Assembly (NCBI GenBank): GCA_035458525.1
Contig: DATHZQ010000014.1
Location: 2,860 to 66,859 of the forward strand
Length of the DNA: 64,000 nt
Reading direction: 5' to 3'
Source of the DNA: Acidimicrobiia bacterium
GTDB taxonomy: Bacteria > Actinomycetota > Acidimicrobiia > Spongiisociales > UBA5794
This document shows, piece after piece, positions 7,073 to 53,552 of the stretch (position 1 is the stretch's first letter; each line of letters starts with the position of its first letter). A program made the translations under genes and the position numbers. Under the pieces are notes generated by a model. It was given only the letters and a program-made list of their open reading frames with translations, did no database searches and was not told the origin of the DNA.

Positions 7073-7082
7073 CTCGCCGCCT

Positions 7083-13100: not shown

Positions 13101-13141
13101 CGGGCCCCGCACTCTTCGGCCCGGCTGCGTCGCTGCGTAGT

Positions 13142-13753: not shown

Positions 13754-13789
13754 CTGCCGGGGACCCCCACCGAGCGGAGTGAGAGAACG

Positions 13790-15770: not shown

Positions 15771-15942
15771 TGCAATCCTCCGGGTTGCTACCTCGCGACG
15801 ATGGTGCCGTTCCCTGTGCACGATCGCAACCGACATACCCCGACGCGGCACGCCCACCGAACGTATACTCCCCTCCGTTCCGCTGAGTGAATCGTTCCAC
15901 TCTGCGGAACGGTCGTCCTGGATCCGTCGGGGAGGAGCGAGC

Positions 15943-18351
15943 GTGCGAGAAGAGGCGCGGTGCGTCATCGTCGGCGGTGGCGCCATGGGGGTGGGGCTGC
16001 TCTACCACCTGGCCCACGAGGGCTGGACCGACACGATCCTGGTCGAGAAGGACGAATTGACCTCAGGGTCCACGTGGCACGCCGCAGGTCTGGTGCCGCA
16101 CTTCATCGGCAGCCTCAACACCGCCAAGGTTCACGCGTACGCGTCGGAGCTCTACGAGAAGCTCGAAGCCGAGACCGGCCTGCACACCGGCTGGCACGGC
16201 TGCGGCGCGGTGCGCCTCGCAAGAACGCCCGACGAAGTCGACTGGTTTCGCTACGTCCACGGCATCCTGCAACTCGTCGGCGTCGAATCGCACCTCGTCG
16301 GTCACGGCGAGATCAACGAGCTGCACCCGTTGCTCGACCTGGACGGCGTCGCCATGGGGCTTCACACCCCCGGTGACGGATGGACCGACCCGACGGCCGC
16401 GACGAACGCGATGGCCGCCGGAGCCCGCCAGCTCGGCGCCGAGGTCTCGCGCCACAATCGCGTGCTCGACATGAACCAGTTGCCGGACAAGCGCTGGGAG
16501 GTCATCACGGAGAAGGGCCGCATCGTCGCCGAGCACGTCGTCAACGCCGCCGGCAGCTACGGCCCGCAGCTCGGCGCCATGGTCGGGCTGGACGTGCCGA
16601 TCGCCAACGTGATCCATCAGTACATCGTCACCGAGGCGATCCCCGAGGTGGCGGCGCTCTCGACCGAGCTTCCCGTCGTGCGGGATCCGCGGGCGTCGTG
16701 TTACTACCGCCAGGAGCACGACGGCCTCATCATCGGGCCGTACGAGACCGAGGGCTCGAAGCCGTACGCTCTCGACGGCATCGACTGGGATCTCACCTTT
16801 CACCTCACCCCGCCCGAGATCGAGCGACTGCTGCCCTGGCTCGAGCTCGCCGGTCAGCGCATACCCGCGTTCCAGGAGGCCGGGATCAAGAAGGTCGTGA
16901 GCGGGCCGATCACCCACACGCCGGACGCCGGCTACCTCATGGGTCCGGCGCCCGGGCTGCAGAACTACTGGATGTGTGTCGGTGCTTCCATCGGCGTCAC
17001 TCAGGGCCCCGGGGCCGGGAAGTACCTCGCTCAGTGGATGGTGCACGGCCAAACCGAGATCAACGTCCACGAGATGGACCCGCGCCGCTTCGGTGACTAC
17101 GCCCCGGGCGACTACACGCTCGCCAAGTCGCTGGACGAATACCACGAGATGTACCAGGTGCGGATGCCGGGGGAGTACCGCGCCGCAGGGCGTCCGCTGC
17201 GGCAGACGCCGCTGTACGACACGCTCGATGCCAAGGGTGCCCAGTGGCAGGAGGTCTACGGCTGGGAGCGGGTGCAGTACTTCTCGCCAGACGGGTCGCC
17301 GGAGGTGTACTCATTCCGCCGCGGTTCGGCCTTCGAGCCAGTCGGCGAGGAAGTACGGGCCGTGCGCGACCGGGTCGGTGTCGCCGACCTGACGGCGTTC
17401 TCCAAGTACCAGGTGACGGGTGCGGGGGCGGCGGCGTTGCTCGACCGGCTCGCCGCCAACCGGCTTCCGGCCCGGGACGGTGGCATCCGGCTCGTGCACA
17501 TGCTGACGGAGAAGGGTGGCATCGAGTCGGAGCTGACCATCACCCGCCTCGGTGCGGACCGGTTCTACTTGAACAGCGCCATCGTGGCCGAGCAGCACGA
17601 TCTCGACTGGATGCAGTTCGCCGGTGGCGCCGACGTGAAGATCGACGACGTCACCAACGAGATGGGCATCCTCGCCGTGACGGGTCCGCGAGCTCGCGAC
17701 GTCCTCGCCGGTCTCGCCGATGCCGACCTGTCCAACGAGGCGTTTCGCTGGCTGACGGGGCAGGAGATCACGGTGGCCGGTGTGCCCTGCATCGCACTGC
17801 GCGTGTCCTACGTGGGGGAGCTGGGGTGGGAGCTCCACCATCCGCTCGACCGCATGCTCGGTCTCTATACCGCGATCCAGGAGGCGGGTGAGCCCCACGG
17901 CCTCGTCGACTTCGGCAGCCGGGCGATGAACGTCATGCGCATCGAGAAGGGGTACAAGGCCTGGGGCAACGAGCTCACCACCGAGATCACCCCGGTCGAG
18001 GCGGGCATCGAGCGCTTCGTCGACTACGGCAAGGACTTCGTGGGCAAGGCAGCAACTCTGGACCGCAAGGGCGAGCCGCTGCAGTGGATGTGCGTCTACG
18101 GCGAGCTCGATGCGGCCGACGCCGACTGCCGTGGCAACGAGCCGGTGTACGCCGGTGACACGCTGATGGGGATCACGACCAGCGGCGCCTACGGCCACTC
18201 CGTCGGCAAGAGCCTCTTCTTCGCATACGTAGCGCCCGAGCACGCCACCCCCGGCTCCACGTTCGCGATCCGCGTGATGGACGAAGCCCGCACCGGCACC
18301 GTCCTCGCCGAAGCGGCATGGGATCCGCGCAACGAGAGGCTCCGGGTCTGA
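15943..18351 (+). CDS. Dimethylglycine/sarcosine oxidase- or dehydrogenase-like FAD enzyme fused to a GcvT-type tetrahydrofolate-binding domain (paralogue 1)
   Basis: GTG 15943 preceded by GGAGGAG (VREEARCVIVGGGAMGVGLLYHLA... DAO fold). C-terminal aminomethyltransferase-like part (FSKYQVTGAGAAALLDRLAANRLP...[13 protein letters not shown]). About 802 aa. Confidence 0.85.
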   Translation: MREEARCVIVGGGAMGVGLLYHLAHEGWTDTILVEKDELTSGSTWHAAGLVPHFIGSLNTAKVHAYASELYEKLEAETGLHTGWHGCGAVRLARTPDEVDWFRYVHGILQLVGVESHLVGHGEINELHPLLDLDGVAMGLHTPGDGWTDPTAATNAMAAGARQLGAEVSRHNRVLDMNQLPDKRWEVITEKGRIVAEHVVNAAGSYGPQLGAMVGLDVPIANVIHQYIVTEAIPEVAALSTELPVVRDPRASCYYRQEHDGLIIGPYETEGSKPYALDGIDWDLTFHLTPPEIERLLPWLELAGQRIPAFQEAGIKKVVSGPITHTPDAGYLMGPAPGLQNYWMCVGASIGVTQGPGAGKYLAQWMVHGQTEINVHEMDPRRFGDYAPGDYTLAKSLDEYHEMYQVRMPGEYRAAGRPLRQTPLYDTLDAKGAQWQEVYGWERVQYFSPDGSPEVYSFRRGSAFEPVGEEVRAVRDRVGVADLTAFSKYQVTGAGAAALLDRLAANRLPARDGGIRLVHMLTEKGGIESELTITRLGADRFYLNSAIVAEQHDLDWMQFAGGADVKIDDVTNEMGILAVTGPRARDVLAGLADADLSNEAFRWLTGQEITVAGVPCIALRVSYVGELGWELHHPLDRMLGLYTAIQEAGEPHGLVDFGSRAMNVMRIEKGYKAWGNELTTEITPVEAGIERFVDYGKDFVGKAATLDRKGEPLQWMCVYGELDAADADCRGNEPVYAGDTLMGITTSGAYGHSVGKSLFFAYVAPEHATPGSTFAIRVMDEARTGTVLAEAAWDPRNERLRV

Positions 18352-19916
18352 TGGCGGCTCCGGAGCGGCGGCGGAGCGGAGGAAGATCCGCTCGGATCGC
18401 AGCTCGCAGCGCAGGGGTGCCCGATGAGGAGCGGGCGGTGCGGCCGGGGCAGCTCGGTGGCGCCTACCAGCCGCTCACCGACGCCGACTGTGTCCGGGTC
18501 TACGAGACGGCGTTGACGCTGCTCGAAGAGCTCGGCATGGGCGACCCGATCCCTGAGTTCATCGAAGCCGTAACGTCCGCCGGCGGCTTCCTCGACGAGA
18601 ACGATCGGCTGCGCTACCCACGCCACGTCGTCGAGCAGGCCATCGAGACCGCGGCGAAGTCGTGGGTGTGGCACGGCATCGACGAGGACCGGAGCATCGA
18701 GCTGTCCGACCGTAAGGTGCATTTCGGCACGGCCGGCGCCGCCGTGCTGATGCTCGACCACGAGACCCAGCGCTTCCGCCGTTCGACCACCGCAGACCTG
18801 TTCGATCTGGCCCGCCTCGCCGATACCCTCGACAACATTCATTTCTTCGCAAGGCCGGTGGTGACCGGCGACGCCGAGACTTCGCGCGAGCTCGACGCCA
18901 ACACGGCCTACGCCACGATGGCGGGCACGACGAAGCCGATCGGCACGTCGTACTTCCGGCCCGAACACGTCTACGAGTCCGTCGAGATGTTCGACCTCGT
19001 GCTCGGTGGCGAAGGCGAATTCAGACGGCGACCGATCGTGTGCGCCAACAACACCTTCGTGGTGCCGCCGCTGCGTTTCTCCATCGACTCGGCGGAATGC
19101 ATGGTCGCCCAGGTGCGGACCGGTATGCCGATCAACCTGCTCTCGGCCGGGCAGGCCGGGGCGACCTCCCCGGCGGCGCTGGCCGGATCGCTGGCGCAAT
19201 CGCTCGCCGAGTGTCTTGCTGCGTTGACTTCGGTGAACTTGCTGTCGCCGGGGCATCCCTGCGTCATGGGTTTGTGGCCGTTCGTGTCCGATCTGCGTAC
19301 CGGGGCGATGAGCGGCGGCAGCGGGGAAGAAGCAGTGCTCGCAGCTGGTGCAGCGCAGGTCGCCAACTGGCTTGGTCTGCCGTCCGGGGTGCCCGCGGGC
19401 ATGGCCGACTCCAAGGTCGCCGATGCCCAGGCGGGTCACGAGAAGGGCCTGACGGTGGCGCTGGCGGCCAACGCCGGCGCCAACCTCGTCTACGAATCCG
19501 CAGGGATGCTGGCGTCGTTGCTTGCCTGTTCGCTCGAGATGATGGTGATCGACAACGACTTGCTCGGTGCGGTGAACCGCACCGTCCGTGGCATCGACGT
19601 CACGGACGACTCGCTCGCTGCCGAAGTGATTGCCGACGTCGTGGCTGGTGCCGGTCACTTCCTCGGGCATGAGCAGACCCTCAATCTGATGCAGCGTGAA
19701 TACCTCTATCCGGAGGTCGGGGATCGCCTCAGCCCTGACGATTGGGTCGATGCGGGAGCGACGACGGTGGCCGAAAGGGCGCGGCATCGCGTCGAGACCA
19801 CGCTCGCCAGTCACTACCCGCGCCACCTCAGCCCTGCGGTCGACGCCAGGATCCGCGAGCGGCTGCCGATACTGCTCGACCCGGAAGCCCTCACGGGAGC
19901 AGACCGACGATGGTGA
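18351..19916 (+). CDS. MttB-superfamily methyltransferase, non-pyrrolysine member (quaternary-amine:corrinoid methyltransferase-like)
   Basis: ATG 18351 overlaps the upstream stop (TGATG). N-terminus [16 protein letters not shown]...[28 protein letters not shown], and the ~520-aa length are typical of MttB/MtgB-family proteins. There is no in-frame TAG. Confidence 0.8.
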
Positions 19917-22351
19917 CGCAGTTGCCGGAGAGGGCAGAAGTGGTCGTCGTCGGCGGCGGCATCGTGGGCTGCAGCATTGCCTACCACCTCGCCAGACGCG
20001 ACGTGACCGACGTGCTGCTCCTCGAACAGGGTCAGCTCACTGGCGGCACCACATGGCATGCCGCCGGACTGGTGAGCCAGCTCAAGTCGTCTCACTCGCT
20101 CACTCGCCTCGCCACCTACTCGGCTCGTCTGTTCGAGTCGCTGGAAGAAGAGACGGGTCAGGCCACCGGCTACCGAACCCCGGGGTCGATCTCCGTTGCC
20201 AGCGATCTGGAGCGGTGGGAAGAGATCATGCGCGGCCTGTCGATGGCTCGCACCGTCGGGGTCGACATGTGGGAGATCTCGCTCGACGAGGCCAAGGAGC
20301 GCTTCCCGCTACTCAACACGGACGATCTCGTCGGAGCCGCCTACATCCCGCGCGACGGCCAGACCAGCCCGGTCGACACCACGATGGCGCTCGCCAAGGG
20401 CGCCAAGGATCGTGGCGTGCGCATCGTCGAAGGCGTGGCGGTCACCGAGCTCCGCACCGTCGACGGCCGCATCGTGGGTGTCGAGACCGAGGCTGGCTAT
20501 GTCGAGGCGGAGACTGTCGTACTCGCCGCCGGGATGTGGACCCGGCAGCTCGCAGCGACGGCCGGTGTCAACGTGCCATTGCAGGCCTGCGAGCACTTCT
20601 ACATCGTCACCGAGCCGATCGACGGCATCGAGCTCGGACTGCCCACGGTCCGCGACCCGACGAACTACACCTACTTCAAGGAGGAGACCGGCAAGGTCAT
20701 GGCCGGGTTCTTCGAACCCCGCGGCAAGGTGTGGAAGCTCGACGGCATCCCCCGCGACTTCACATTCGGGACGCTGCCCGAGGACTGGGATCACGTCGGC
20801 CCGATCTTCGAGCGCGCCATCCATCGGGTGCCGGCGCTGGCGGACGCCGGGATTCAGCTGTTCTTCAACGGGCCGGAGGCCTTTACGCCTGACGGGGTCT
20901 ACTACCTCGGCGAGTCGCCGGAGGTGGATCGTTGCTTCATCGCCGCCGGGTTCAACTCCGTCGGCATCCAGTCGGCAGGGGGAGTCGGCTGGGTTCTCGC
21001 CGACTGGGTCATCGACGGTCATCCGCCCATGGATCTCTGGCCGGTCGACATCCGCCGCACCTTCCCGTTCCAGAGCGATCCGGACTATCTGGAAGCGCGC
21101 ATCTCCGAGAGCCTCGGGCTGCTGTATGCCATGCACTGGCCGTTCCACCAATACGAAACGGCGCGCAATGTGCGCAGGTCACCGCTGCACGATCGACTCG
21201 AGGCGGCTGGTGCGGTCTTCGGTGAGACGGCCGGCTGGGAGCGGCCCAACTGGTTCGCCGAACCCGGCCAGGAGCGCCGCTATGAGTACTCCTATGGGAA
21301 GCAGAACTGGTTCGAAGCGTCCGGCCGTGAGTGCGACGCCGTGCGGCACCACGTCGGGCTCTTCGATCAAGCCAGCTTCGCCAAGTTCGACGTGCGAGGC
21401 CCCGATGCGATGGCGGCGCTCAACCGGATGTGTGGCAACGACATCGACACCGAGATCGGCAAAGTCGTCTACACCCAATGGCTCAACGAGCGGGGCGGCA
21501 TCGAGGCCGACCTGACCGTGACCCGCCGTGCCGAGGACCGCTTCCTCGTCGTCACCAGCGCTGCTACGGCGACGCGCGACTGGGCGTGGTTGCGGCGCCA
21601 TGTGCGCGATCGGAGTGTGGCGATCGAGGACGTCACGGATGCGATGCCGACCATTGGGGTGATGGGGCCGCGATCTCGAGAGTTGCTGGCCGGGCTGACG
21701 GACACCGATCTCAGCAACGAGGCCTTTGCGTTCGGCACTGCCCGGGAGCTCGAGATCGCAGGCAGGCGTGTGCTGGCGCTCCGGGTCAGCTACGTCGGCG
21801 AGCTGGGCTGGGAGCTGAACGTCGCTCCCGAAGATGCGGTCGCGCTCTACGACGCCATCGTTGCGGCCGGCGACGAACATGGGCTGCGCCACGCCGGGTA
21901 TCACGCCATGAACACCCTGCGGCTCGAGTCTGGATATCGGCATTTCGGCCACGACATCACCGATGAGGACACGCCTCTCGAGGGAGGACTGTCGTTTGCG
22001 GTGGCGTGGGCCAAGCCGGGGGGCTTCATCGGGCGGGAGGCATTGCTGGCACAGCGAGACCTGCCACGGACAAAGCGTCTCGTCCAGTTCCGCCTCGACG
22101 ACACGGACCGGCTGCTGTACCACGACGAACCCATCTATGCCGACGGCGAGCTCGTAGGTCGAACGTCTTCGGGTATGTGGAGCTACGTCGAGAGACGCCC
22201 GCTGGCGATGGGATACCTCAGTCGCACCGAGGGTGTCACCAAGGAATGGGTCGCCGACGCGTCCTTCGAAATCGAGGTAGCCGGAGAGCGGATCCCGGCG
22301 GCGGCGCAATTGGGTTCGTTCCACCCTGCGCGTGCCCGAACGCACATGTGA
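19910..22351 (+). CDS. Dimethylglycine/sarcosine oxidase- or dehydrogenase-like FAD enzyme fused to a GcvT-type domain (paralogue 2)
   Basis: ATG 19910 overlaps the mttB-like stop (ATGGTGA). [28 protein letters not shown]...TWHAAGLV. C-terminal GcvT-like part ([24 protein letters not shown]...[13 protein letters not shown]). 813 aa. Confidence 0.85.
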
Positions 22352-26611: not shown

Positions 26612-27007
26612 TCAGCTCGTATCGAGCAGCTCGGCGGCCCGTGATGCGGCTGCGAGGCGTGCATCGGTAGTCACGATGGGGACGCCGAGTCGGTTGGCGA
26701 GCTCGACGTAGAGGGCGTCCACCAGTCTCAGGTTGTGACGGAGCTTCCAAGCGCCGTTGAGCAAGGGGGCGAGAAGGTGACGCTGAAGCGGGGCAGCGGA
26801 TAGACGTTGGACTCGGGGGGTCGCCTGGCGGACAGTCAGCTCTCCGGCGCGCTGCAGGCGGCCTAGGGCGGCCAGGACTTCCGCATCGAAGTGTGCGGGA
26901 ACGTGAAGCTCGTGACCGCGGAGTCGACGCCGCACTGCGGCCGCCACCGGTGACCCGACGAGCAGATCGACCATTGCGGAGGCGTCGATGATCGCCGACT
27001 CAGGCAC
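26612..27007 (-). CDS. vapC: PIN-domain toxin VapC
   Basis: GTG 27007 overlaps the antitoxin stop by 8 nt. The 131-aa sequence runs VPESAIIDASAMVDLLVG...HVPAHFDAEVL...LVDALYVELANRLGVPIVTTDARL, carrying the PIN acidic residues. Confidence 0.8.
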   Translation of the reverse strand: MPESAIIDASAMVDLLVGSPVAAAVRRRLRGHELHVPAHFDAEVLAALGRLQRAGELTVRQATPRVQRLSAAPLQRHLLAPLLNGAWKLRHNLRLVDALYVELANRLGVPIVTTDARLAAASRAAELLDTS

Positions 27008-27224
27008 GTTCGAAGTCGTCCTTTGCGGCGGCCACGGCGTCGACGACGGAGCGGTGGCCAATACCGAGTGGGCGTATGGCCGCCACGTCGTCGAGCCACT
27101 CATCGACTCGACTGGCAGCGAGCGCGCTCCGCAACGCTTCTTGGGTCAGGTTGGAAACATTCAACCCTGCGGCCTTGGCTTCGGCAGCAAGATCGTCGGG
27201 AAGGTAGACGTTCACTCGTGCCAT
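27000..27224 (-). CDS. vapB: Type II antitoxin VapB (ribbon-helix-helix-like)
   Basis: MARVNVYLPDDLAAEAKAAGLNVSNLTQEALRSAL..., ~74 aa, immediately upstream of and overlapping vapC. ATG 27230 is an alternative start. Confidence 0.7.
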   Translation of the reverse strand: MARVNVYLPDDLAAEAKAAGLNVSNLTQEALRSALAASRVDEWLDDVAAIRPLGIGHRSVVDAVAAAKDDFERA

Positions 27225-27230
27225 GCGCAT

Positions 27231-27236
27231 AGGATA
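27231..27236 (-). promoter_or_regulatory. Candidate -10 hexamer TATCCT (TANNNT) for a leaderless vapBC transcript
   Basis: On the minus strand, TATCCT is followed by 6 nt (atgcgc) and then ATG 27224. This is the spacing expected for actinobacterial leaderless mRNAs. The call rests on sequence pattern only. Confidence 0.3.
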
Positions 27237-27460
27237 CACACACAAGCCCAGATCAATGGGTACGCATGCATCCATCGCTCACAGGCCCACACAGCCGAGC
27301 GGCATCACGTGTCCGACGGCGGCGGCCTTCGGTGAAGACGGTCCGTGGCGACATCGCCTTCGCAGCGCTCAGTCGGCGCGAGGAGCGTCGTAGGCGCTCC
27401 CGCGTCCGCCCGGCTCTCCGCGGATCGTCGGGCACGAACGCCACGCCGCGGGAGGTGCGG

Positions 27461-28240
27461 CTAGCGGCCCTGCCAGTTGGGCTTGCGGCCTTCGGCGAAG
27501 GCCTTGGGCCCCTCGAGGGCGTCCTCGCTGGCGAGCATTTCGTCGTAGGCCGCGACGTAGCCGCCCCGGAGCGCGACGAAGGCCTCCGGGATGGCCATGT
27601 CCGCCGTCCTCCGCATGGCCTGCAGTGCCGCGGCGACGGCGAGCGGTGCCGCGGCCGCGATCTCGTGCGCCAGCCCACGCGCCGTCGCCATCAGGTCATC
27701 CGCCGCAACCACCCGGTTGACGAGCCCGAGCTGCGCCGCTTCCGCTGCGCCCACTCTCCGACCCGTCAGGATCAGCTCCTTGGCGACGGCAGGCGGGACG
27801 ATCCGGGGCAACCGGATGACGCCGGCGTCCGGGATCACGCCCACGAAGACCTCGCCGAAGAACATCTCAGCGTGGTCGGCTGCGACCACGAGGTCGGCGG
27901 CGAGGACGAGCTCGAAACCACCGCCCACGGCCATGCCGTTGACAGCAGCGATCACCGGCTTGTCGAGGTGGGGCAACTCGGGGAAGCCGCCGAACCCGCC
28001 GACGCCGTAGTCCGACTCGTAGTCTTCGCCCTCGGCGGCTGCCTTGAGGTCCCAGCCGGCGCTGAAGAAGCGCTCGCCGGCACCCGTCACAATGGCGACC
28101 CGGAGTGCGGCGTCGTCGCGGAACTCGGCGAACACCTCGCCCATCGCCCGGCTCGTTGCGGCGTTGATGGCGTTGGCTTTCGGAACGTCGAGCACCACCT
28201 CCAGCAACGGCGGCTGCTTCGTCACGTGGAGCGGGCTCAT
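27461..28240 (-). CDS. caiD: Crotonase-family carnitinyl-CoA dehydratase-like enzyme
   Basis: ATG 28240 (MSPLHVTKQPPLLEVVLDVPKANAINAATSRAMGEVFAEFRDD..LRVAIVTGAGERFFSAGWDLKAAAEGE...DKPVIAAVNGMAVGGGFEL...SEDALEGPKAFAEGRKPNWQGR). Collinear with E. coli CaiD as I recall it. 259 aa. Confidence 0.8.
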   Translation of the reverse strand: MSPLHVTKQPPLLEVVLDVPKANAINAATSRAMGEVFAEFRDDAALRVAIVTGAGERFFSAGWDLKAAAEGEDYESDYGVGGFGGFPELPHLDKPVIAAVNGMAVGGGFELVLAADLVVAADHAEMFFGEVFVGVIPDAGVIRLPRIVPPAVAKELILTGRRVGAAEAAQLGLVNRVVAADDLMATARGLAHEIAAAAPLAVAAALQAMRRTADMAIPEAFVALRGGYVAAYDEMLASEDALEGPKAFAEGRKPNWQGR

Positions 28241-30201
28241 GCGAGGGTCACCATGGCGTCGACGGCTACTGCCCGGCTGGGTGTCACGATCAGCGGATTG
28301 ATCTCGGCCTCGAGCACGGGTCCATCGTCGCACATCGCCTGCAGCTCGAACACTGCATCGACGGCCGCTTCCAGATCGGGTGGCTCGGGAGCGCGGCAGC
28401 GGGCCACAACGCGCAGCTGCCGCAGAGCGACGTCGATGGCGCTGCGGCCCGCCGGTGCCAGCAAGTGGGTTCGGTCCTCCATGACCTCGACGAGCCGTCC
28501 GCCGGCTCCGAGGGTGATCAGCCAGCCCATGTGATCGACAGCACGCACGCTCACGAGCAGTTCGAGCACGCCATCCTCGATCGTCTCCTCAACCAGGTAG
28601 CGCTCGCCCACCGGCATGGCGGCAATCGTCCGCACGAGTTGCTCGGCATCGTGAATCCCAACCGCCACGGCACCGACGTCCGTCTTGTGATCGATGCCGA
28701 GCACCTTGACCGTGAGCGGAAACGGCAGTGCGGTGGCCGTGGGATCCGACAGCGTCTCGCTGCGGGGAACCGGAATCCCCGCCGATGCGAGGAGCCGCTT
28801 GCTGGCAGCCTCGTCGAGCGTGGCCGCCTCTCTGCCCCGTGTTGCTGGTACCCCGTGGACGCCAACGTCAGCGTTCTCGACGGCGCCGAGTGCTGCGAGA
28901 GCCTCGATCGCCTCTCCGATACCCAGCATCGGCACCAACCCGAAGTCCCGCAGCCGTTCCTGTGCGGCGACCGGCATCGTCTCCGGTAGCGAAGCGACCA
29001 CGAGCCCTGGAATCAACTCGCCGCAGGCGGCGGCGAACGCCCGGCAGGCCGCCCACCATGCATCCGGCACCTCGGTCGCCGGGAAGTCGAGTACCAGCAT
29101 GGATACATCGAACCGACCATTCACGACTGCAGTGAACGTCTGCCGCATGCGATCCTCGTCACCCCACGAGAACGTGTGATAGTCCATCGGATTCGACACG
29201 GCGACGAGCGGCCCGACCGTCTCGGCAATCGCCGCTGCGTGACTCGGCTCGAGCGCGGGCAGGTCGATCCCGGCGTCGTGGCCGAGGTCGGCCACGTGTG
29301 CCGCTTCACCACCCGAGGCGCTGAGCGAGACAATCCGGGGCCGATGGGGAATGCGGCCGGCGAGCTTCAGTGTCTCCAGGAACGCCGGCATCGTGCGAAC
29401 TCGCGCCACTCCGTAGCGGGCGAAGAGTGCCCCGTAGGCCGCGTCGTCGCCCACCAGTGCTCCGGTATGCGAGGCCGTCGCGAGGCTGCCCTTCTCGGAG
29501 GTGCCCATTCGCAAGGCAACGACGGGGATTCCCATCTCCCTCGCACGCAACACCGCATGGCCGAAAGCTCGCGAGTCGGTGATCGACTCGAGTTGCACGC
29601 CAATGGCGGTGATGCGCGGATCGTCGAGCATCGCCTCCATGAGGGCCGGGAGATCGATCTTGGCTTGATTACCCGCCGTGATCAGGAGGCCGATGTCGAG
29701 GCTGCGCCGAGCCATCGTGAGGTTGATGCCGATATTGCCGCTCTGGGTGATGATCGCAACGCCCCGGTCGACCGGCCGCAGGCCGTGGACGTCGGGCCAG
29801 ATCGCCGTCCGGTCGAGAGCGTTGACGTAGCCGTAGCAATTCGGCCCGAGCAGCGGCATGGCACCTGCCGCCACGACCAGCTGATCTTGCAACTCGCGGG
29901 CGCCCGACTCGGCGAATCCCGATGTGTAGACCACGGCGCTGCCGGTGCCGCGGTCCGCCAGGGCGGTGACGACGTCCGGCGTCGCATCACGAGGGACGGC
30001 CACGAAGGCAACGTCGGGCGCCGCAGGCAAGTCATCGGTTGATGCCACGCACCTACGTCCCAGCATCTCGGGCCGGGTTGGATGCACGGGCCACACCTCG
30101 CCGGTGTAGCCGAGGAGGTCGAGCTGTTCGATCACTCGCCCGGCCTCGGTGCCGCCGACGACGGCGACGGACTTCGGCCTGAGGAGCCGATCCAGATTCA
30201 C
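28237..30201 (-). CDS. NDP-forming acyl-CoA synthetase (CoA-binding, succinyl-CoA-synthetase-like flavodoxin and ATP-grasp domains)
   Basis: GTG 30201, 1 nt after the upstream stop (VNLDRLLRPKSVAVVGGTEAGRVIEQL...). Domain order is typical of acetate--CoA ligase (ADP-forming) family proteins. 654 aa. The stop overlaps the caiD-like start (ATGA). Confidence 0.8.
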   Translation of the reverse strand: MNLDRLLRPKSVAVVGGTEAGRVIEQLDLLGYTGEVWPVHPTRPEMLGRRCVASTDDLPAAPDVAFVAVPRDATPDVVTALADRGTGSAVVYTSGFAESGARELQDQLVVAAGAMPLLGPNCYGYVNALDRTAIWPDVHGLRPVDRGVAIITQSGNIGINLTMARRSLDIGLLITAGNQAKIDLPALMEAMLDDPRITAIGVQLESITDSRAFGHAVLRAREMGIPVVALRMGTSEKGSLATASHTGALVGDDAAYGALFARYGVARVRTMPAFLETLKLAGRIPHRPRIVSLSASGGEAAHVADLGHDAGIDLPALEPSHAAAIAETVGPLVAVSNPMDYHTFSWGDEDRMRQTFTAVVNGRFDVSMLVLDFPATEVPDAWWAACRAFAAACGELIPGLVVASLPETMPVAAQERLRDFGLVPMLGIGEAIEALAALGAVENADVGVHGVPATRGREAATLDEAASKRLLASAGIPVPRSETLSDPTATALPFPLTVKVLGIDHKTDVGAVAVGIHDAEQLVRTIAAMPVGERYLVEETIEDGVLELLVSVRAVDHMGWLITLGAGGRLVEVMEDRTHLLAPAGRSAIDVALRQLRVVARCRAPEPPDLEAAVDAVFELQAMCDDGPVLEAEINPLIVTPSRAVAVDAMVTLA

Positions 30202-30202
30202 G

Positions 30203-31363
30203 TCAGCCGCCGCGGGGCCGCAGCATGGCGCGCGAGATGATGTGACGCTGGATCTCGCTCGTGCCGTCCCAGATGCGGTCGACACGGGTGTCACGCCACA
30301 TGCGTTCCAGCGGCAGCTCGGTCATCAGACCCATGCCCCCGAAGATCTGAACCGCCTCGTCGGTCACGAACGTGCACATCTCGGTGGCGAACACCTTGGC
30401 CATGGCGGCGTCGCTGTCGGTCATGGTGCCCTGGTCGTCCTTCCACGCCGCCCGCAGCGTCAGCAGTTCCGCAGCGTCGTACTGGGTTTGCATATCGGCG
30501 AGCTTGAACGACACACCTTGGAACTTGCCGATCTGTTGTCCGAACTGCTCCCGGTTGGCTGCCCAGTCGGTGGCGAGATCGATGGCGCGACGGGCCCGTC
30601 CGAGGCAGATCGCGGCTACCTGGAGTCTGGTGGATCCCAGCCATTCGTTGGCGACATCGAAGCCGCGGTGCACCTCGCCGAGCACGGCGGACTCCGCCAC
30701 GCGGCAGTTCTCGAACGTGAGAATGGCGTTGTGGTAGCCGCGGTTGCTCACGGCGTCGTAGCCTTTCGTCACGGTGAGTCCTGGCGTGTCGAAGTCGACG
30801 AGAAATGCAGTGATCCGCTTCCGCATCCCGCGGCTGGTCTCCTCTTCCCCGGTTGCCGCGAACACGATGACGTAGTCGGCGAGGTCGGCGTGGCTGATGA
30901 AGTGTTTGGTCCCGTTGATGACGAAGTTGCGGCCGTCGGCGTCGGCGCGGCACTTCATCCCCCGGACGTCCGATCCTGCATCCGGTTCGCTCATCGCCAG
31001 GCAGTCGACCCGCTCGCCGCGAATCGTCGGCAGCAGGTAGCGCTCTACCTGTTCCCCGGTACAGGCGTTAAGAATGTTCGACGGTCGGGCCACGATGTAG
31101 TGCAAGGCATAGGACGTGGCGCCGAACTCGCGGTCCACCAGAGTCATGGTCAGCGAATCGAGACCGCCGCCGCCCAGCTCTGCGGGCATGTTGGCGGCGT
31201 AGATGCCGGCCTGCAGCGCCCGGGTGCGGATCTGCTCTACGAGCTCTGGCCGTACCTCGTCGGTGCGCTCGACCTCTTCCTCGTACGGCATCAGCTCCTG
31301 CTCGGTGAAACGCCGCGCCGTGTCGACGATGAGCTTCTGTTCATCGGTCAGGGCAAAGTCCAT
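30203..31363 (-). CDS. Acyl-CoA dehydrogenase (CaiA / gamma-butyrobetainyl-CoA dehydrogenase-like by context)
   Basis: 386-aa ACAD: MDFALTDEQKLIVDTARRF...CLAMSEPDAGSDV...FGQQIGKFQGVSFKLADM...IWDGTSEIQRHIISRAML. The start overlaps the upstream stop by 1 nt (TGATG). Confidence 0.85.
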   Translation of the reverse strand: MDFALTDEQKLIVDTARRFTEQELMPYEEEVERTDEVRPELVEQIRTRALQAGIYAANMPAELGGGGLDSLTMTLVDREFGATSYALHYIVARPSNILNACTGEQVERYLLPTIRGERVDCLAMSEPDAGSDVRGMKCRADADGRNFVINGTKHFISHADLADYVIVFAATGEEETSRGMRKRITAFLVDFDTPGLTVTKGYDAVSNRGYHNAILTFENCRVAESAVLGEVHRGFDVANEWLGSTRLQVAAICLGRARRAIDLATDWAANREQFGQQIGKFQGVSFKLADMQTQYDAAELLTLRAAWKDDQGTMTDSDAAMAKVFATEMCTFVTDEAVQIFGGMGLMTELPLERMWRDTRVDRIWDGTSEIQRHIISRAMLRPRGG

Positions 31364-32823
31364 CAGCGAAATCCCATCGTTGGCGTGGCGGGCGATTCGA
31401 GTCGGGCGTGGGCGGCAACGACCGCCTGCACGGCCTGGCGGACGGCCGGCGGCACCGGCGCCGACCTGCCGGCGGTGGTGTCGACATGAAGGAGCATCTG
31501 CTCGACCGTCGCAAGCCGGCGTTGATCGGCGGCGTGGGTGATCTCGTGGACGAAATGCAGCCGCTTGGCGTCGGCCCCGAGGACGGTCGTGACGAGGTCG
31601 AGCGGGTCATCGACCGAGGCTTCTCCGAGGAACCCGATGTGGGTCTCGACGGTGTAGTACGAGTGCCCGGCGGCCCGGTAGTCCTCGTCGATGCCGAGGT
31701 AGCGGAACAGCTTGTCCGAGGCCCAGCCCGCCGCGAGCAGGTAGGCGCTCTCGGTCATGTGGCCGTTGTAGTCGACCCATTCGGGCTCGACGACGCAGGA
31801 ATAGAGCCGCAACGGAGCTGCGACGCTCGCACCCTCGGCCCACACCGCCGGATCGGCGCCGTGCACTCGGGCTTCGTGGCGGGCCATGACGCGGCCGGCG
31901 CCGATGTCGTGGGCACGTAGCGCCCGCATCACCGAAACGAGGTAGTCGTCGCGGAGGCGCTCCAGCTCCACGATGGAGCGGCCCGCAGCCTGGGTCTCCG
32001 CCCCGGTCGCCATCCGATCGATGAGCTCGGGGGTCAATGGCGGGGCCTCGAGCTTGGTCCACGGCAGCTCCAGCGCCGGCCCGAAGTGCTCGAGCATGTA
32101 GCGCATGCCGCCGTCCCCGCCGGCCAGGTGGAAGGTGAGGTTGGTGCCCATGCCGGCCCAACGCAGCCCCGGTCCATAGGTGACGGCGGCGTCCAGCTCC
32201 TCGGTGGTGGCGATGCCGTCGTTGACGAGATGGAGGATCTCCCGCCACATCGCTTCTTGGAGCCGGTCCGACAGATAGCCCTCGATCTCGTTGCGGACGA
32301 CGAGGGGTTCCATGCCGAGGTCGGCGTAGAAGTCCCGAGCTCGCTGGACGGTGCCGGCCGAGGTGTCCCCGCCGGGCACCACTTCGACGAGGGGCAAGAG
32401 GTATACCGGGTTGAACGGATGGCCGACGACGAATCGCTCCGGGCGCTGCAGAGCCGCTTGCATGTCGGACGGGAGTAAACCGGACGAGCTCGAGGCGATG
32501 ATGACCTCTGGTCGGGCGGCCGCATCGAGCTGGCGGTGCACCGGCGCCTTGATGTCCGGGTTCTCCGGCACGTTCTCCTGGATGAAGTCGCTGGCGGCGG
32601 CGACCGCTGCGGGGGATTCGGCCCACCCGACACGGGTCGGGTCGGCTCCGGGCAACAGGCCGAGCTTGCGTGCAGCCGGCCAGGCCCGTGCGATGCCGGC
32701 CCGGAACCGTGCCTCGGCTCCTTCGGCGACGTCGCTGGCGATGACGGTATGTCCGCGGGCCAGCGCCCGCACCGCCCAGCCGGTGCCGATGACCCCGGTG
32801 CCGATCAGCCCGACGGTCGTCAT
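31363..32823 (-). CDS. lcdH: L-carnitine dehydrogenase (3-hydroxyacyl-CoA dehydrogenase fold) fused to a C-terminal hotdog thioesterase domain
   Basis: ATG 32823 (MTTVGLIGTGVIGTGWAVRALARGH...FVVGHPFNPVYLLPLVEVV...). The C-terminal ~150 aa (LYSCVVEPEWVDYNGHMTESAYLLAAGWASD...YTVETHIGFLGEA) is 4HBT-like. Track ORF 31363..33315 is 5'-extended. Confidence 0.8.
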   Translation of the reverse strand: MTTVGLIGTGVIGTGWAVRALARGHTVIASDVAEGAEARFRAGIARAWPAARKLGLLPGADPTRVGWAESPAAVAAASDFIQENVPENPDIKAPVHRQLDAAARPEVIIASSSSGLLPSDMQAALQRPERFVVGHPFNPVYLLPLVEVVPGGDTSAGTVQRARDFYADLGMEPLVVRNEIEGYLSDRLQEAMWREILHLVNDGIATTEELDAAVTYGPGLRWAGMGTNLTFHLAGGDGGMRYMLEHFGPALELPWTKLEAPPLTPELIDRMATGAETQAAGRSIVELERLRDDYLVSVMRALRAHDIGAGRVMARHEARVHGADPAVWAEGASVAAPLRLYSCVVEPEWVDYNGHMTESAYLLAAGWASDKLFRYLGIDEDYRAAGHSYYTVETHIGFLGEASVDDPLDLVTTVLGADAKRLHFVHEITHAADQRRLATVEQMLLHVDTTAGRSAPVPPAVRQAVQAVVAAHARLESPATPTMGFR

Positions 32824-33428
32824 GCAGGCACCAGCGGCACGTCGAAGAGCAGTCCCCACTCCTGGCGGGCCCACAACCCCACGGTGGCGTGGATCGAGCC
32901 CTGCTTGTTCTCGAACGTGGCTCGGTCGGCGAGGGGTAGCGGCGCCGTGTGCCACACGCCGGGATGCATGTTCACGCCGAACGCACCGTCGGAGTACAAG
33001 GCCACGAAGTCTTCGGGGGCGACGTCGTCGCCGGGCGGGGCGAGCAGGAACACGGTGGGTACTCCGGGGGCGAAGAAGGCCTGGCCGCCGTCGTCGTGGT
33101 AGTTGACCTCGTCCACGAGGAGCCGGCTGTGGTCGATCGCGGTCCGTGTTTCGCTTGCCTCGGTTGGATCGACCCGCCAGCCGAGTAGGTCGCTGCGCCC
33201 CACGGCGTTGTTCCGGGAGAACATCATCTCGCCGCGCCAGAAGATGTCGAACGGCCCTTCGACCGTGTGCCCGTAGCCGCCGCTCGTGACGGGCCGCCGC
33301 CCTGACGGCCGCCACTGCACCTGCTCGATCTCGACCTCGTCGATCGAGCGGAACAGTGTGCCGAGGCCGACCGCCGTCTCCTCGTTCAGCGGTAGCAGCG
33401 GGACCGGGTGGAGGTCAGAAGGCGACAT
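32820..33428 (-). CDS. Ureidoglycolate-lyase-like (cupin-related) family protein, function in this operon unknown
   Basis: ATG 33428 (MSPSDLHPVPLLPLNEETAVGLGTLF...). The segment ...FVALYSDGAFGVNMHPGVWHTAPLPL... resembles the ureidoglycolate lyase family core. The assignment is tentative. Confidence 0.45.
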   Translation of the reverse strand: MSPSDLHPVPLLPLNEETAVGLGTLFRSIDEVEIEQVQWRPSGRRPVTSGGYGHTVEGPFDIFWRGEMMFSRNNAVGRSDLLGWRVDPTEASETRTAIDHSRLLVDEVNYHDDGGQAFFAPGVPTVFLLAPPGDDVAPEDFVALYSDGAFGVNMHPGVWHTAPLPLADRATFENKQGSIHATVGLWARQEWGLLFDVPLVPA

Positions 33429-34344
33429 TCTCGAGGCCCTTGAGGTCGAGGATCTCGCGGGCCTCCTCGGACGTTGCGACTTCGCGCGACAGTTCGTCGA
33501 GGATGCGGACCATCTTCGCCACCTGCTCCTCGTTGGAGTCGGCGAGCCGGCCCTTGCGCAGGTAGATGCCGTCCTCGAGGCCGACCCTGACGTGGCCGCC
33601 GAGCACCGCACCCGCCGTGACCAGATCGAACTGATGGCGGCCGCTGCCGAGGATGGACCACTGGATGTCGTCGCCGAAGAGGCGGTCGGCCACCGTCTTC
33701 ATCGCCACGACGTTTTCGACGTCCGGTCCGATGCCGCCGAGCGTCCCCATGACGAACTGCATGAAGATCGGCGGCTTGACCAGGCCTTGGTCTGCGTAGA
33801 ACGCAAGGGTGTAGAGATGCCCGATGTCGTATGCCTCGAACTCGAATCGGCATCCCGTTTCCTCGGTCAGCTCGGTCAGCATGTACTCGATGTCGGAGAA
33901 GCGGTTGACGAACGGTTCGGTGCGGGTGCTCTCGAGGAACGGCTCCTCCCAGTCGTACTTCCAGCGGCCTTCGTACTTGGGGATCATCTGGAACAGTCCG
34001 TAGTTCATCGTGCCGAGGTTGCAGGTGGCAAGCTCGGGCTTGAGCTGCCTGATGACGTTGAGCCGTTCCTCGATCGTCTGGCCGGTGGCGCCACCGGTCG
34101 TGATCGAGATGACGGCGTCGCACTGATCTTTGATGCCTGCGCAGTACTCGCGGAACAGTCCGACATCTGCGGTGGGGCGGCCGTCGAGCGGATCCCTGGC
34201 GTGGATGTGGATGATGGCGGCGCCCGCCGTGTGAGCCGCCACCGACTGCTCGACGTGATCCTCGACCGTCATCGGGATCTGGTTGTTCATGGTGGGGGTG
34301 TGCGACGCCCCGGTTACCGCGCAGGTGAGGATGACGTTGCTCAT
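33415..34344 (-). CDS. BKACE-family enzyme (beta-keto acid cleavage; dehydrocarnitine cleavage enzyme by context)
   Basis: ATG 34344 (MSNVILTCAVTGASHTPTMNNQIPMTVEDHVEQSVAAHTAGAAIIHIHARD...ITTGGA...LGSGRHQF...GGHVRVGLEDGIY). Classic DUF849/BKACE TIM-barrel motifs. 309 aa. Confidence 0.85.
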   Translation of the reverse strand: MSNVILTCAVTGASHTPTMNNQIPMTVEDHVEQSVAAHTAGAAIIHIHARDPLDGRPTADVGLFREYCAGIKDQCDAVISITTGGATGQTIEERLNVIRQLKPELATCNLGTMNYGLFQMIPKYEGRWKYDWEEPFLESTRTEPFVNRFSDIEYMLTELTEETGCRFEFEAYDIGHLYTLAFYADQGLVKPPIFMQFVMGTLGGIGPDVENVVAMKTVADRLFGDDIQWSILGSGRHQFDLVTAGAVLGGHVRVGLEDGIYLRKGRLADSNEEQVAKMVRILDELSREVATSEEAREILDLKGLENVAF

Positions 34345-35468
34345 GAGAGGCGGAACTCCCCGCCCTTGCGCTCGAGCACGCGCAGCCGGCTCATGAAGTC
34401 GTCTCGCTCCACGTAGGTTCCCTGGAGGTGGCGAGGGCCGGTGTTGGGGTCGAACTCGTTGCGAGCGTGGAGCACGCGACGGTTGTCGAACACCTGGCAA
34501 TCGCCCGGCTCCATCTTGAAGACGTACTCGAGCTCCGGGTCACGCAGGATCATCCCCAACGTGCGCCAAGCCGCATAGAAGGGCTCGATGAGCTCCGGGT
34601 CGAGGTCGATCGCACCCAGCAGGGCACTGTGGAAGCGCACCTCGACGTGCTCGCCGTCGCCGTCGACGACGATCACTCGCTGATGGTTGCGGACGTCGTG
34701 CCCGTCGTCCACGAAAACGTACGGCACTTCGACCGTGGCCAGCAGCTCATGCATCTCGGGATGCTGCGTGCGCAAGCGGCGGGCGGCTTCGAAACCGTCG
34801 ACGAGGATGCTCTCGCCGCCCTCGGCCTCGAACTCGATGCAGTGCAGGAACTGCAGACCGGGCAGGTTGCGCCGGTTGGGGACGTCGGTGTGCGCGTTGA
34901 GCTTCACCGACGTGTAGGCCAGGTTCTCCGGGTCTGGCTTCGAGATGACCTGGAACTCACGCCCGAAGTGGGTTTCCTGGATGAAGGCAATGCGGTTGGC
35001 CAGCTCGACGACGGCACCGACACGAGTCGGCACGTCTTTCACGATGGCGAAGCCGTAGTCGCGAATCATGGTCAACCACCGGCGCAGCCCGTCGTCGCCG
35101 CTATCGATCTCGTCGAGCGAGATCGTCGGCGGCGAGTTGGCGATGTCGGCGATCCACAGGTTGGGGGACTCTCGCCGCTCCGCCCGCCCCACGGGGCCGT
35201 AGCGGTTGGCGCGCAGCCAGCCGGTGCTGAGCGAGGTGCGGTGGCCATCCGGCCAGGTCGCCTCGAGGCGCTCGCCGAGCGTGATCTCCGCGGGCCGCAC
35301 GTCCGGGTCGAGCCGGACGTTGTCGAGCAGCCGTTCCCAGGCGTCGGGATGCTTGCAGTCGGCGCATGCACAGTTGTCGCGCAGCCAGACGTAGTGGAAA
35401 TCGTCGGCAGCTCCGTCTTCCCACGCAACGGTCACCGTCCGCTCGCCTACGTTGGTGATCCTCGCCAC
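34341..35468 (-). CDS. Gamma-butyrobetaine dioxygenase (BBOX; TauD/TfdA Fe(II)/2-oxoglutarate oxygenase with N-terminal Zn/DUF971 domain)
   Basis: GTG 35468. N-terminal part: VTVAWEDGAADDFHYVWLRDNCACADCKHP. Catalytic part includes LNAHTDVPN (HxD) and ...FDNRRVLHARNEF. 375 aa. The stop overlaps the BKACE start (ATGA). Confidence 0.85.
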   Translation of the reverse strand: MARITNVGERTVTVAWEDGAADDFHYVWLRDNCACADCKHPDAWERLLDNVRLDPDVRPAEITLGERLEATWPDGHRTSLSTGWLRANRYGPVGRAERRESPNLWIADIANSPPTISLDEIDSGDDGLRRWLTMIRDYGFAIVKDVPTRVGAVVELANRIAFIQETHFGREFQVISKPDPENLAYTSVKLNAHTDVPNRRNLPGLQFLHCIEFEAEGGESILVDGFEAARRLRTQHPEMHELLATVEVPYVFVDDGHDVRNHQRVIVVDGDGEHVEVRFHSALLGAIDLDPELIEPFYAAWRTLGMILRDPELEYVFKMEPGDCQVFDNRRVLHARNEFDPNTGPRHLQGTYVERDDFMSRLRVLERKGGEFRLS

Positions 35469-35479
35469 GCGTCCTCCCT

Positions 35480-35513
35480 GTTCTGCTGTGCGGAACGTGC
35501 TGTTCTACGGAAC
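35480..35513. promoter_or_regulatory. Two GTTC-N-GAAC type palindromic sites in the BBOX/IclR divergent region (candidate IclR operator)
   Basis: GTTCTGCTGTGCGGAAC (35480-35496) and GTTCTACGGAAC (35502-35513) lie in the 66-nt gap between the divergent starts at 35468 and 35535. Confidence 0.3.
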
Positions 35514-35534
35514 GCGGGCTACCGTACACATCGC

Positions 35535-36317
35535 ATGACGAGCCAGTCAATCAATTCTGGGCCTCAGACCGTTGTCGCCGTCGAGCGAGCGTTCTCGATC
35601 CTGCAGACGATCGCTGCGGAGCAGCAGAGCATGGGCATCAGTGCCATTGCCCGCTCTACAGGACTGGCCAAGAGCACGGTGTCGCGCCTGCTGACCACGC
35701 TCGACCAGCTGGGCATGGTCGAGCGGATCGGCGTTGACGGTCGCTACCAGCTGGGACCCGGTCTGACCGTGCTGACGCCACGCTCGACGTCATCCCTCGT
35801 TGATCTCGCACGGCCTCACCTGCGGGCGCTCGTGGACGAAGTGGGTGAAGACGCCGGTCTCGCCGTGAGCGACGGCGTCGACGTGCTGTACGTCGACCAA
35901 GTGCAAGGTCCGGGTGCCGTGCAGGTACAGGATTGGACCGGGCACCGGCTGCCGGCCCATGCCGTTGCCGCCGGGTACGTGCTGATGCGCAGCTGGTCGG
36001 TGGAGAAGCTGGATGTCTTCCTGGCGGGCACGCTCGAGCCGCTGGCGCTGCGCACGGTGGTCGACCCGGACGAGATCCGCCGGCGGGTGGCCACGTGGTC
36101 CGGCTACGTGTGGACCCGTCTCGAGTACGCCGACGATGTCAACGGTGCAGCAGCGCCGATCTACGGGGCCGACGGGAGCATCTTGGCTGCGGTCAACCTG
36201 TACGGTCCCTCGTACCGCTTCCCTGGTGAGCGGTCCGAGACTGCGATCGGTGCCCTCCTCGCAGAAGCCGGCCGCAAGATCTCCCAGCATCTGGTGACAC
36301 TCTCGACGGAGGGTTGA
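35535..36317 (+). CDS. IclR-family transcriptional regulator
   Basis: ATG 35535 (MTSQSINSGPQTVVAVERAFSILQTIAAEQQSMGISAIARSTGLAKSTVSRLLTTLDQLGMVER...). wHTH plus IclR effector domain, 260 aa. Track ORF 34428..36317 is a 5'-extended artefact. Confidence 0.85.
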   Translation: MTSQSINSGPQTVVAVERAFSILQTIAAEQQSMGISAIARSTGLAKSTVSRLLTTLDQLGMVERIGVDGRYQLGPGLTVLTPRSTSSLVDLARPHLRALVDEVGEDAGLAVSDGVDVLYVDQVQGPGAVQVQDWTGHRLPAHAVAAGYVLMRSWSVEKLDVFLAGTLEPLALRTVVDPDEIRRRVATWSGYVWTRLEYADDVNGAAAPIYGADGSILAAVNLYGPSYRFPGERSETAIGALLAEAGRKISQHLVTLSTEG

Positions 36318-36440
36318 GCCGACGATCCGCGGCCTTCGACGCGGAGCCGTGTAGGCGTCGACCCTTGTGCGAGTGATTCGTGTATCAGACGCGCGGTTCG
36401 GTCGTCCCTTTCACGACCGCCCGCCGCGAAGGGATCTGTC

Positions 36441-52332: not shown

Positions 52333-52333
52333 C

Positions 52334-52361: not shown

Positions 52362-52437
52362 GTTGTGGTTGGGGCAGATTCACGTGTGAAAGGCGCCGGG
52401 CTCCGCGAGGGTCCGGCGCTTTCTATGCTCCCGGCCC

Positions 52438-53544: not shown

Positions 53545-53552
53545 TTCCGGTT

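Follow-up and report, generated by a model that had tools for sequence, protein, structure and literature searches.

In Sinorhizobium meliloti, gamma-butyrobetaine (GBB) is reportedly converted to glycine betaine by five enzymes in seven steps, a pathway that Bazire et al. are said to have described in J Bacteriol in 2019 (201:e00772-18). GBB hydroxylases (BBOX) are encoded together with carnitine dehydrogenase (CDH) and BKACE in genomic islands of SAR11 (PMC12421898), and TmpA and TmpB of Leisingera caerulea convert 2-(trimethylammonio)ethylphosphonate (TMAEP) to glycine betaine. We compared with these systems a seven-gene locus in a stretch of 64,000 nt (in the following, the window) of a marine-type Acidimicrobiia metagenome-assembled genome (MAG; G000, 3.8 Mb in 165 contigs). 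The seven minus-strand open reading frames (ORFs; g1 to g7, Table 1) are all open and extend from position 35468 down to 27461. They probably constitute one catabolic operon under the control of a divergent IclR-family regulator, which would lead from GBB or L-carnitine to glycine betaine. Checking the ORFs reproduced the gene order and all six junctions of the initial annotation of this locus: ATGA overlaps connect g1 with g2, g3 with g4, and g6 with g7, 14 nt are shared by g2 and g3, the g4/g5 junction is a TGATG (1-nt overlap), and a gap of 1 nt separates g5 from g6. The GTG start codon of g1 is preceded, at a distance of 5 nt, by the Shine-Dalgarno sequence GGGAGG, and the regulator gene lies 66 nt upstream of g1.

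Table 1. Coordinates of the g1 to g7 operon, its regulatory region, and functionally related loci in the window.
Feature	Position (nt)	Strand	Description
g1	34341-35468	-	BBOX/TmpA-family Fe(II)/2-oxoglutarate dioxygenase, 375 aa; heads the operon
g2	33415-34344	-	BKACE, presumed dehydrocarnitine cleavage
g3	32820-33428	-	AllA-fold (PF04115-family) protein, 202 aa
g4	31363-32823	-	Predicted fusion of L-carnitine dehydrogenase and 4HBT-type thioesterase, 486 aa
g5	30203-31363	-	Acyl-CoA dehydrogenase (BcoC-type), presumed gamma-butyrobetainyl-CoA dehydrogenase, 386 aa
g6	28237-30201	-	NDP-forming acyl-CoA synthetase (BcoA/B-type), 654 aa
g7	27461-28240	-	CaiD/BcoD-like, putative crotonobetainyl-CoA hydratase, 259 aa
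Divergent promoter/operator region	35469-35534	.	66 nt; two tandem CGTTCC-N7-GGAACG-like sites 17 nt apart
IclR-family regulator, divergent	35535-36317	+	260 aa; HTH_IclR and IclR_C domains
HD-domain oxygenase, PhnZ/TmpB fold	15222-15770	-	183 aa; may act together with g1
Intergenic region between the HD gene and the dimethylglycine-dehydrogenase-like (first DAO-GcvT) gene	15771-15942	.	Holds CGTTCC-N7-GGAACG
Glycine betaine demethylation genes	15943-22351	+	DAO-GcvT, non-Pyl MttB-family methyltransferase, second DAO-GcvT (Pfam)

A tblastn search with the g6 ligase as query found a gene cluster on plasmid pRphaR744b of Rhizobium phaseoli, whose members are annotated, in this order, as 3-keto-5-aminohexanoate cleavage protein, carnitine 3-dehydrogenase, acyl-CoA dehydrogenase, acetate-CoA ligase family protein, and carnitinyl-CoA dehydratase. 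The cluster is colinear with g2, g4, g5, g6, and g7, and thus the window matches it in all five enzyme types as well as in their order. Four of the proteins share 44 to 63% identity with their R. phaseoli counterparts (g4 46%, g5 63%, g6 44% across 99% of its length, and g7 49%), whereas the BKACE, which belongs to another subfamily, shares 28%. We take the R. phaseoli cluster to be of the type that Bazire et al. 2019 characterized in S. meliloti (bco-lcdH). It further differs from the locus in the window by its regulator, which is of the GlxA/LysR type rather than IclR, by an adjacent ABC transporter, which the window operon lacks, and by the absence of the two extra genes g1 and g3. Searches against Pfam and NCBIfam upheld the gene families that had been named from the sequence. 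g4 carries the domains 3HCDH_N, 3HCDH, and 4HBT_2 and matches positions 5-485 of the 495 positions of the carnitine 3-dehydrogenase model NF005716 (513 bits; cut-off 592); the R. phaseoli carnitine 3-dehydrogenase has 496 aa and hence represents the fused form. Four ACAD domains were found in g5, CoA_binding_2, Succ_CoA_lig, and ATP-grasp_5 domains in g6, and an ECH_1 domain in g7, the best NCBIfam match of which is crotonobetainyl-CoA hydratase (CaiD model NF002936, 338.8 bits; cut-off 500; next crotonase family, 209). As the rhizobial cluster is colinear, and because the five genes recur without g1 and g3 in many Acidimicrobiia (see below), g2, g4, g5, g6, and g7 are predicted to form a single, already known pathway and not two routes. 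It is very likely that this core leads from GBB via carnitine to glycine betaine. The proposed relation of the operon to carnitine and GBB thus is well supported by synteny. The three routes that the initial annotation saw combined here were an overstatement, and the locus would rather unite one known five-gene pathway, present in rhizobia and many Acidimicrobiia, with one recruited oxygenase.

All substrate assignments in the operon are predictions from homology and gene context. In the proposed pathway, g6 would convert GBB to GBB-CoA, g5 would convert GBB-CoA to crotonobetainyl-CoA, and g7 would add water to the latter to form L-carnitinyl-CoA. From this the thioesterase half of g4 would release L-carnitine, which the dehydrogenase half of the same protein would turn into 3-dehydrocarnitine. 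With acetyl-CoA as the second substrate, g2 would then yield acetoacetate and betainyl-CoA, and hydrolysis of betainyl-CoA by the thioesterase would produce glycine betaine, which could be demethylated by the products of the neighboring MttB/DAO-GcvT genes. A dual role as dehydrogenase and thioesterase is confirmed for SM2011_c01638 of S. meliloti in a published article (PMC12482172). The role considered most likely for g1 is a shortcut, ATP-independent and dependent on O2 and 2-oxoglutarate (2OG), that would lead from GBB directly to L-carnitine.

The stepwise chemistry of the core, as given above, follows what Bazire et al. 2019 reportedly found, and several observations weigh against its role in carnitine catabolism. 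The g2 protein (PF05853, 334.6 bits) exceeds the cut-off of NF053538, the model for 3,5-dioxohexanoate:acetyl-CoA acetone transferase (438 vs. 430 bits), and is not orthologous to the rhizobial BKACE of the characterized type. A carnitine transporter is absent from the operon, and no transporter of the BCCT family was found in the genome; the ABC transporter genes located beside the g1 loci of two other genomes, G246 and G082, are only distantly related to that of the rhizobial cluster (24% for the substrate-binding protein). Moreover, g4, g5, and g7 all score below the carnitine-specific equivalog cut-offs. These features would fit an operon for substrates other than carnitine-type compounds, in which the BKACE is of the 3,5-dioxohexanoate type, the acyl-CoA dehydrogenase, ligase, and crotonase act on short acyl-CoAs or acetoacetate, and the gene names have arisen by annotation drift. 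This explanation appears very unlikely, however, in view of the colinear rhizobial cluster with its carnitine 3-dehydrogenase and carnitinyl-CoA dehydratase (names assigned by the Prokaryotic Genome Annotation Pipeline, PGAP), the distance between the CaiD model and the next family in the scores of g7, and the alignment of g4 with the whole fused dehydrogenase/thioesterase profile. In addition, the cluster adjoins genes for glycine betaine demethylation in several genomes, and g1 has kept an aromatic cage of the trimethylammonium type. BKACE of the g2 type (7/11) and of the rhizobial type (4/11) also replace each other in the otherwise equivalent g1-less clusters described below, whose acyl-CoA dehydrogenases are 71-83% identical to g5 whichever BKACE accompanies them. 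This alternation is the reason to read g2 as a putative dehydrocarnitine-cleaving enzyme. Given the context of carnitine catabolism, the 3,5-dioxohexanoate name that automatic annotation would attach to g2 probably is an annotation trap; the matches listed for g2 comprised only close uncharacterized relatives.

The distribution of the operon was analyzed in a sample of 300 other Acidimicrobiia genomes, 15 of which contain a g5 orthologue (72-83% identity for the full-length ones by this search). Eleven genomic contexts fetched from this class contain the five-gene cluster without g1 or g3, two of them incompletely as they reach contig ends. Several five-gene clusters adjoin MttB/DAO-GcvT genes as in the window, and in L003, L152, and L158 the five-gene cluster has orthologues of the demethylation genes listed in Table 1 as neighbors. 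The complete set of seven genes recurs in the same order and with 72-93% protein identity in two Acidimicrobiia MAGs (L003 and L004) and one metagenome contig (L067). The comparison with related genomes that the initial annotation had recommended gave the seven-gene order in these three loci and only five genes in the eleven others. A close g1 orthologue heads the operon solely in the window, L003, L004, L067, and G082; four of these five operons also contain g3 (the exception being G082), which occurs in none of the 11 g1-less clusters. Across the related loci, g1 (five loci) and g3 (three loci) are 75-87% identical, and their ratios of nonsynonymous to synonymous substitutions (dN/dS = 0.08-0.19) indicate purifying selection. 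Owing to this conservation and selection, the seven-gene arrangement can be regarded as real and not as a product of chance ORFs in high-GC DNA.

The upstream regions reveal how the arrangement arose. Orthologues of the IclR regulator (76-83% identity) flank the operon in L003 and L004, and more distant homologues (33-48%) flank g1-less clusters. In g1-less operons, the sequence preceding the BKACE gene can be aligned with the 66-nt block in front of g1, with ...CGTTCC...ACAGCACGTTCCG...GAAC as the common core. Because these blocks align, g1 was inserted between a pre-existing operator/promoter and the BKACE gene. The lineage-specific novelty, as judged from these comparisons, thus is g1 behind the IclR operator and g3 behind the BKACE gene, both recruited into an existing operon. 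The absence of g1 and g3 from most five-gene clusters, and of g3 from G082, would also be in line with both genes being passengers that play no part in the pathway, or with g1 having a transcript of its own, in which case the redundancy of the operon would be physiologically meaningless. A promoter/terminator consensus scan of positions 26900-36400 was uninformative in this respect, as matches were no more numerous than in shuffled sequence. Considering that g1 and g3 are translationally coupled to their neighbors, that both are conserved under purifying selection, and that g1 directly follows the conserved operator, this explanation is hardly credible.

The identity of g1 is more enigmatic. 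The protein contains TauD and GBBH-like_N domains (Pfam) and an N-terminal DUF971/Zn domain, and its residues were mapped via HMMER alignments and an alignment of 140 sequences. With BBOX (human BBOX1, PDB 3O2G/3MS5; Pseudomonas sp. AK1; TIGR02409) it shares the fold, the N-terminal Zn domain with cysteines 33/35/38, the HxD...H iron triad (H193/D195/H334), the 2OG arginine (R346), and the aromatic cage (F168/F172/Y185/Y352), in which both Y177 and W181 of BBOX are replaced by Phe. The acid group of the substrate is bound by N191 and N293 in human BBOX, and N287 is the corresponding Asn of TmpA (PMC9296572). In g1 the first of these residues is retained as N182, whereas H280/S281/A282 stand where BBOX has NNA and TmpA has NNR, so that N292/N293 of BBOX are replaced by His/Ser. 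As for the phosphonate ligands of TmpA, only an equivalent of N187 is present in g1, and N287 and R288 are absent (positions 281-282 are Ser-Ala). Four of these and related findings speak against g1 being a GBB hydroxylase: its score on the BBOX model TIGR02409 (336.7 bits) is below the cut-off of 414.75; its best relative in the PDB is TmpA (243 bits) and not human BBOX (209 bits); the second acid-binding Asn (BBOX N293, TmpA N287) is Ser/Thr; and His280 is new and invariant across the g1 clade. The cut-off of the TmpA model NF049936 (400) is not reached either (327.4 bits).

The phylogeny of the family nevertheless favors BBOX. In a tree of 135 members of the BBOX family, each labeled by its gene neighbors, the g1 clade (support 0.976) holds two members adjacent to LcdH, one of which (L073) also adjoins a canonical BKACE. 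Several large LcdH-adjacent clades likewise lack Asn at positions 280-281; since they share this loss, it need not argue against BBOX function. The paralogues with Arg282 all adjoin HD genes and form separate clades together with true TmpA-like genes. The tree and the neighbor labels thus favor hydroxylation of GBB by g1. Consistently, BBOX-type genes with carnitine dehydrogenase and BKACE as neighbors, the context also known from the SAR11 islands, were found in many metagenome loci. In G082 (96% complete), where no HD gene was found, g1 is kept in the operon under purifying selection. All this inclines us, with little more than even confidence, to regard g1 as a putative GBB hydroxylase. Its designation as BBOX therefore holds at the level of the family, but is not secure for the function, considering the scores below the BBOX and TmpA cut-offs, the loss of one acid-binding Asn, and the coupling of an orthologue to an HD gene in G246 (see below).

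Two further loci contain relatives of g1. On plasmid p_1 of Phyllobacterium sp. 628 (L060, 7962-9706), a gene annotated as 'gamma-butyrobetaine dioxygenase' is followed by a true TmpB. Because the TmpA model gives it 596 bits and the BBOX model only 417 (cut-off 414.75), this gene represents a mislabeled TmpA. A plasmid of Jannaschia sp. M317 (L061, 1049-9074) carries a BKACE of the g2 type (50% identity), a short-chain dehydrogenase/reductase (SDR), a sugar-type ABC transporter, a small cupin, and a BBOX-family dioxygenase (40%), a composition that loosely parallels g1, g2, and g3.

A different function of g1 is suggested by the HD gene of the window, which lies 18.6 kb from g1 and is divergent from the DAO-GcvT/MttB genes. 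The ten best Foldseek matches of the predicted HD structure (pLDDT, predicted local distance difference test, 92) all are PhnZ or TmpB and align over the full length with TM (template modeling) scores of 0.63-0.70; the matches that follow are set apart by a thousand-fold step in E-value. The ligand pattern H55, H79-D80, H90, H113, D152 is invariant and of the diiron type. In sequence the protein remains far below the cut-offs of the PhnZ and TmpB models (TmpB, 29 bits vs. 300). In G246, a g1 orthologue (75% identity) is located outside the five-gene cluster and overlaps, by TGATG, a 183-aa HD gene, whose product is 81% identical to the HD protein of the window; this coupling is a further point against g1 being a GBB hydroxylase. 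The G246 pair is flanked by an Opp-type ABC transporter and a betaine-aldehyde dehydrogenase. Orthologues of its flanking genes (69-74% identity) are present in the window, namely an Opp-type substrate-binding protein at 2-751 (minus strand; cut by the window edge), an MR/MLE enolase-family gene at 950-1969 (minus strand), and a betaine-aldehyde-dehydrogenase-like gene at 4664-6118 (plus strand). Between the latter and the HD gene, a defense island (6140-15187) breaks the G246-like synteny.

A shared operator connects the HD gene with the operon. The only perfect CGTTCC-N7-GGAACG of the window (15893-15911) is located upstream of the HD gene and accompanied by copies with two mismatches at 15876 and 15808. 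Upstream of g1, sites at 35479-35497 and 35496-35514 have two mismatches each, and the tandem spacing of 17 nt is the same at both genes. Perfect sites also precede the HD orthologues of G301 and G302, and sites with one mismatch precede the g1-HD pair of G246 and g1 in G082 and L004. The motif has a background frequency of 0.13 hits per 10 kb; in six other loci it stands in front of either the HD gene or the operon. Because it occurs at matching positions, a common regulon appears to unite g1 and the HD gene with the five-gene core and the genes for demethylation.

Thus, a present or former partnership between g1 and a PhnZ/TmpB-like oxygenase is possible. According to this alternative, g1 is the hydroxylase half of an oxidative cleavage system resembling TmpA/TmpB (PhnY*/PhnZ-like) and the HD protein is the other half. 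g1 would hydroxylate the carbon beside the acid group of a trimethylammonium compound, either a TMAEP-like phosphonate or a carboxylate (for example beta-alanine betaine). The HD protein would remove the acid group to leave glycine betaine, and the location of g1 in the carnitine operon would have no other reason than that both modules feed one glycine betaine regulon. TmpA indeed is the closest relative of g1 with a solved structure (PDB 6NPB-D and 6NPA for the L. caerulea system), full-length matches to the fold of the HD protein are confined to PhnZ and TmpB, and glycine betaine as the product would suit the neighboring genes. Furthermore, g1 is the sole BBOX-family dioxygenase gene of the genome and the HD gene its sole match to the phosphonate-HD (PhnZ-type) model, the overlapping orthologues in G246 and the common operator link the two genes, and cleavage of an alpha-hydroxycarboxylate by an Fe/2OG hydroxylase together with an HD enzyme is documented for SmaO/SmaX (PMC12186529). 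That such modules can mix is illustrated by G156, where a BBOX-like gene and an HD gene stand as a pair inside a carnitine cluster. We nevertheless consider a TmpA/TmpB-like function of g1 doubtful. The protein lacks N287 and R288 and falls outside the TmpA clade, whereas the HD-adjacent paralogues in the clades on the TmpA side all keep the Arg. No HD gene was found in the G082 genome (96% complete), which has g1 in the operon, nor in the flanks of the two LcdH-adjacent relatives in the g1 clade, one of which also adjoins BKACE. Finally, HD homologues with 53-65% identity occur in six genomes that lack g1, where they have no operator and mixed, unrelated neighbors (S9 peptidase, AMP-ligase, IclR, dehydrogenases). 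Owing to these heterogeneous contexts, a general role of the HD homologues could not be derived from their neighbors.

It is also conceivable, but unlikely, that g1 and the HD protein form an undescribed two-enzyme route to glycine betaine, which would apply chemistry of the TmpA/TmpB type to a trimethylammonium acid other than TMAEP. The pair would then have been split in this lineage, with the hydroxylase wired into the carnitine operon and one IclR operator kept for both. Candidate substrates would be beta-alanine betaine, through hydroxylation beside the carboxylate and SmaX-like C-C cleavage, or an intermediate derived from carnitine. A variant for delta-valerobetaine, in which the clusters with the other BKACE subfamily would degrade this longer betaine and g1 and the HD protein would finish its breakdown, was rejected as the principal explanation because the acyl-CoA dehydrogenases are equally g5-like with either BKACE, and because g1-less clusters would yield a dead-end product.

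In G156 (L053, contig C39, 609-7181), the BBOX-family member of the pair is a paralogue other than g1 that carries Arg282. The carnitine cluster that contains the pair begins with hydroxylase and HD, followed by rhizobial-type BKACE, LcdH-thioesterase, one unidentified gene, and acyl-CoA dehydrogenase (76% identity to g5). One of the tallies behind this analysis includes two unpublished genomes (G275 and G212), and none of the specific claims depends on them.

The second recruited gene, g3, matches PF04115 (Ureidogly_lyase) weakly (24.5 bits; cut-off 23). Its AlphaFold2 model (pLDDT 90.5) has the ureidoglycolate hydrolases 2bdr, 1xsq, and 1yqc as best Foldseek matches, with 16-18% sequence identity. 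With 21-29 bits it remains below the cut-offs of the NCBIfam AllA equivalogs (160-260). Thus, g3 is modeled as an AllA-fold protein that shares with the AllA ureidoglycolate lyases (PDB 1XSQ, 1YQC, 2BDR) the fold and the Pfam family only. It is a distant member of a separate subfamily of approximately 200-230 aa that also occurs in cyanobacteria and Paraburkholderia; three histidines are invariant. Unlike AllA, it stands in no context of purine catabolism. In the class sample, g3 was confined to this genome, and the surroundings of its relative on a Paraburkholderia replicon were uninformative.

Compared with caiTABCDE of Escherichia coli, the operon has in common a CaiD-like hydratase and an acyl-CoA dehydrogenase presumed to act on betainyl-CoA esters. 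However, it lacks the CaiB transferase, the CaiC AMP-ligase, in place of which it has an NDP-forming ligase, and the CaiT antiporter. Neither g5 (195 vs. 540 bits on the CaiA equivalog) nor g7 reaches the level of its cai counterpart, and the predicted direction is aerobic catabolism as opposed to respiratory reduction.

In the sea, quaternary amines such as carnitine, butyrobetaine, and glycine betaine rank as major osmolytes and as major suppliers of nitrogen and carbon. Uncultured Acidimicrobiia appear to possess the CoA-dependent route of the rhizobial type, to which one lineage has added an oxygenase. The redundancy between oxygenase and CoA-dependent route that the initial annotation emphasized is thereby narrowed: g1 would be an extra entry point and derives from an insertion, and for the redundancy to exist at all, g1 must be a BBOX. 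In that case two co-expressed ways of making carnitine, one at the cost of ATP and electron-transfer flavoprotein and the other of O2, iron, and 2OG, would offer a testable case of pathway redundancy. If g1 instead acts with the PhnZ-like HD protein, new chemistry that cleaves C-P or C-C bonds would feed glycine betaine. TmpA-like genes labeled 'gamma-butyrobetaine dioxygenase' and BKACE named after 3,5-dioxohexanoate are traps for annotation. Overlooked in the initial annotation were the divergently transcribed regulator gene of the IclR family, the operator that both loci share, the presence of an HD gene in the window, and the lack of orthology between g2 and the rhizobial BKACE.

Downstream of g7, on the same strand (26612-27340, minus), an ORF for a VapB-like antitoxin and a PIN-domain VapC were found, which are not pathway genes. 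Elsewhere in the window (51589-54554), genes for a binding protein of the Phosphonate-bd family, a GcvT/DmdA-like protein, and a PhyH-family dioxygenase are grouped, and a second IclR regulator is located nearby at 50001-50771.

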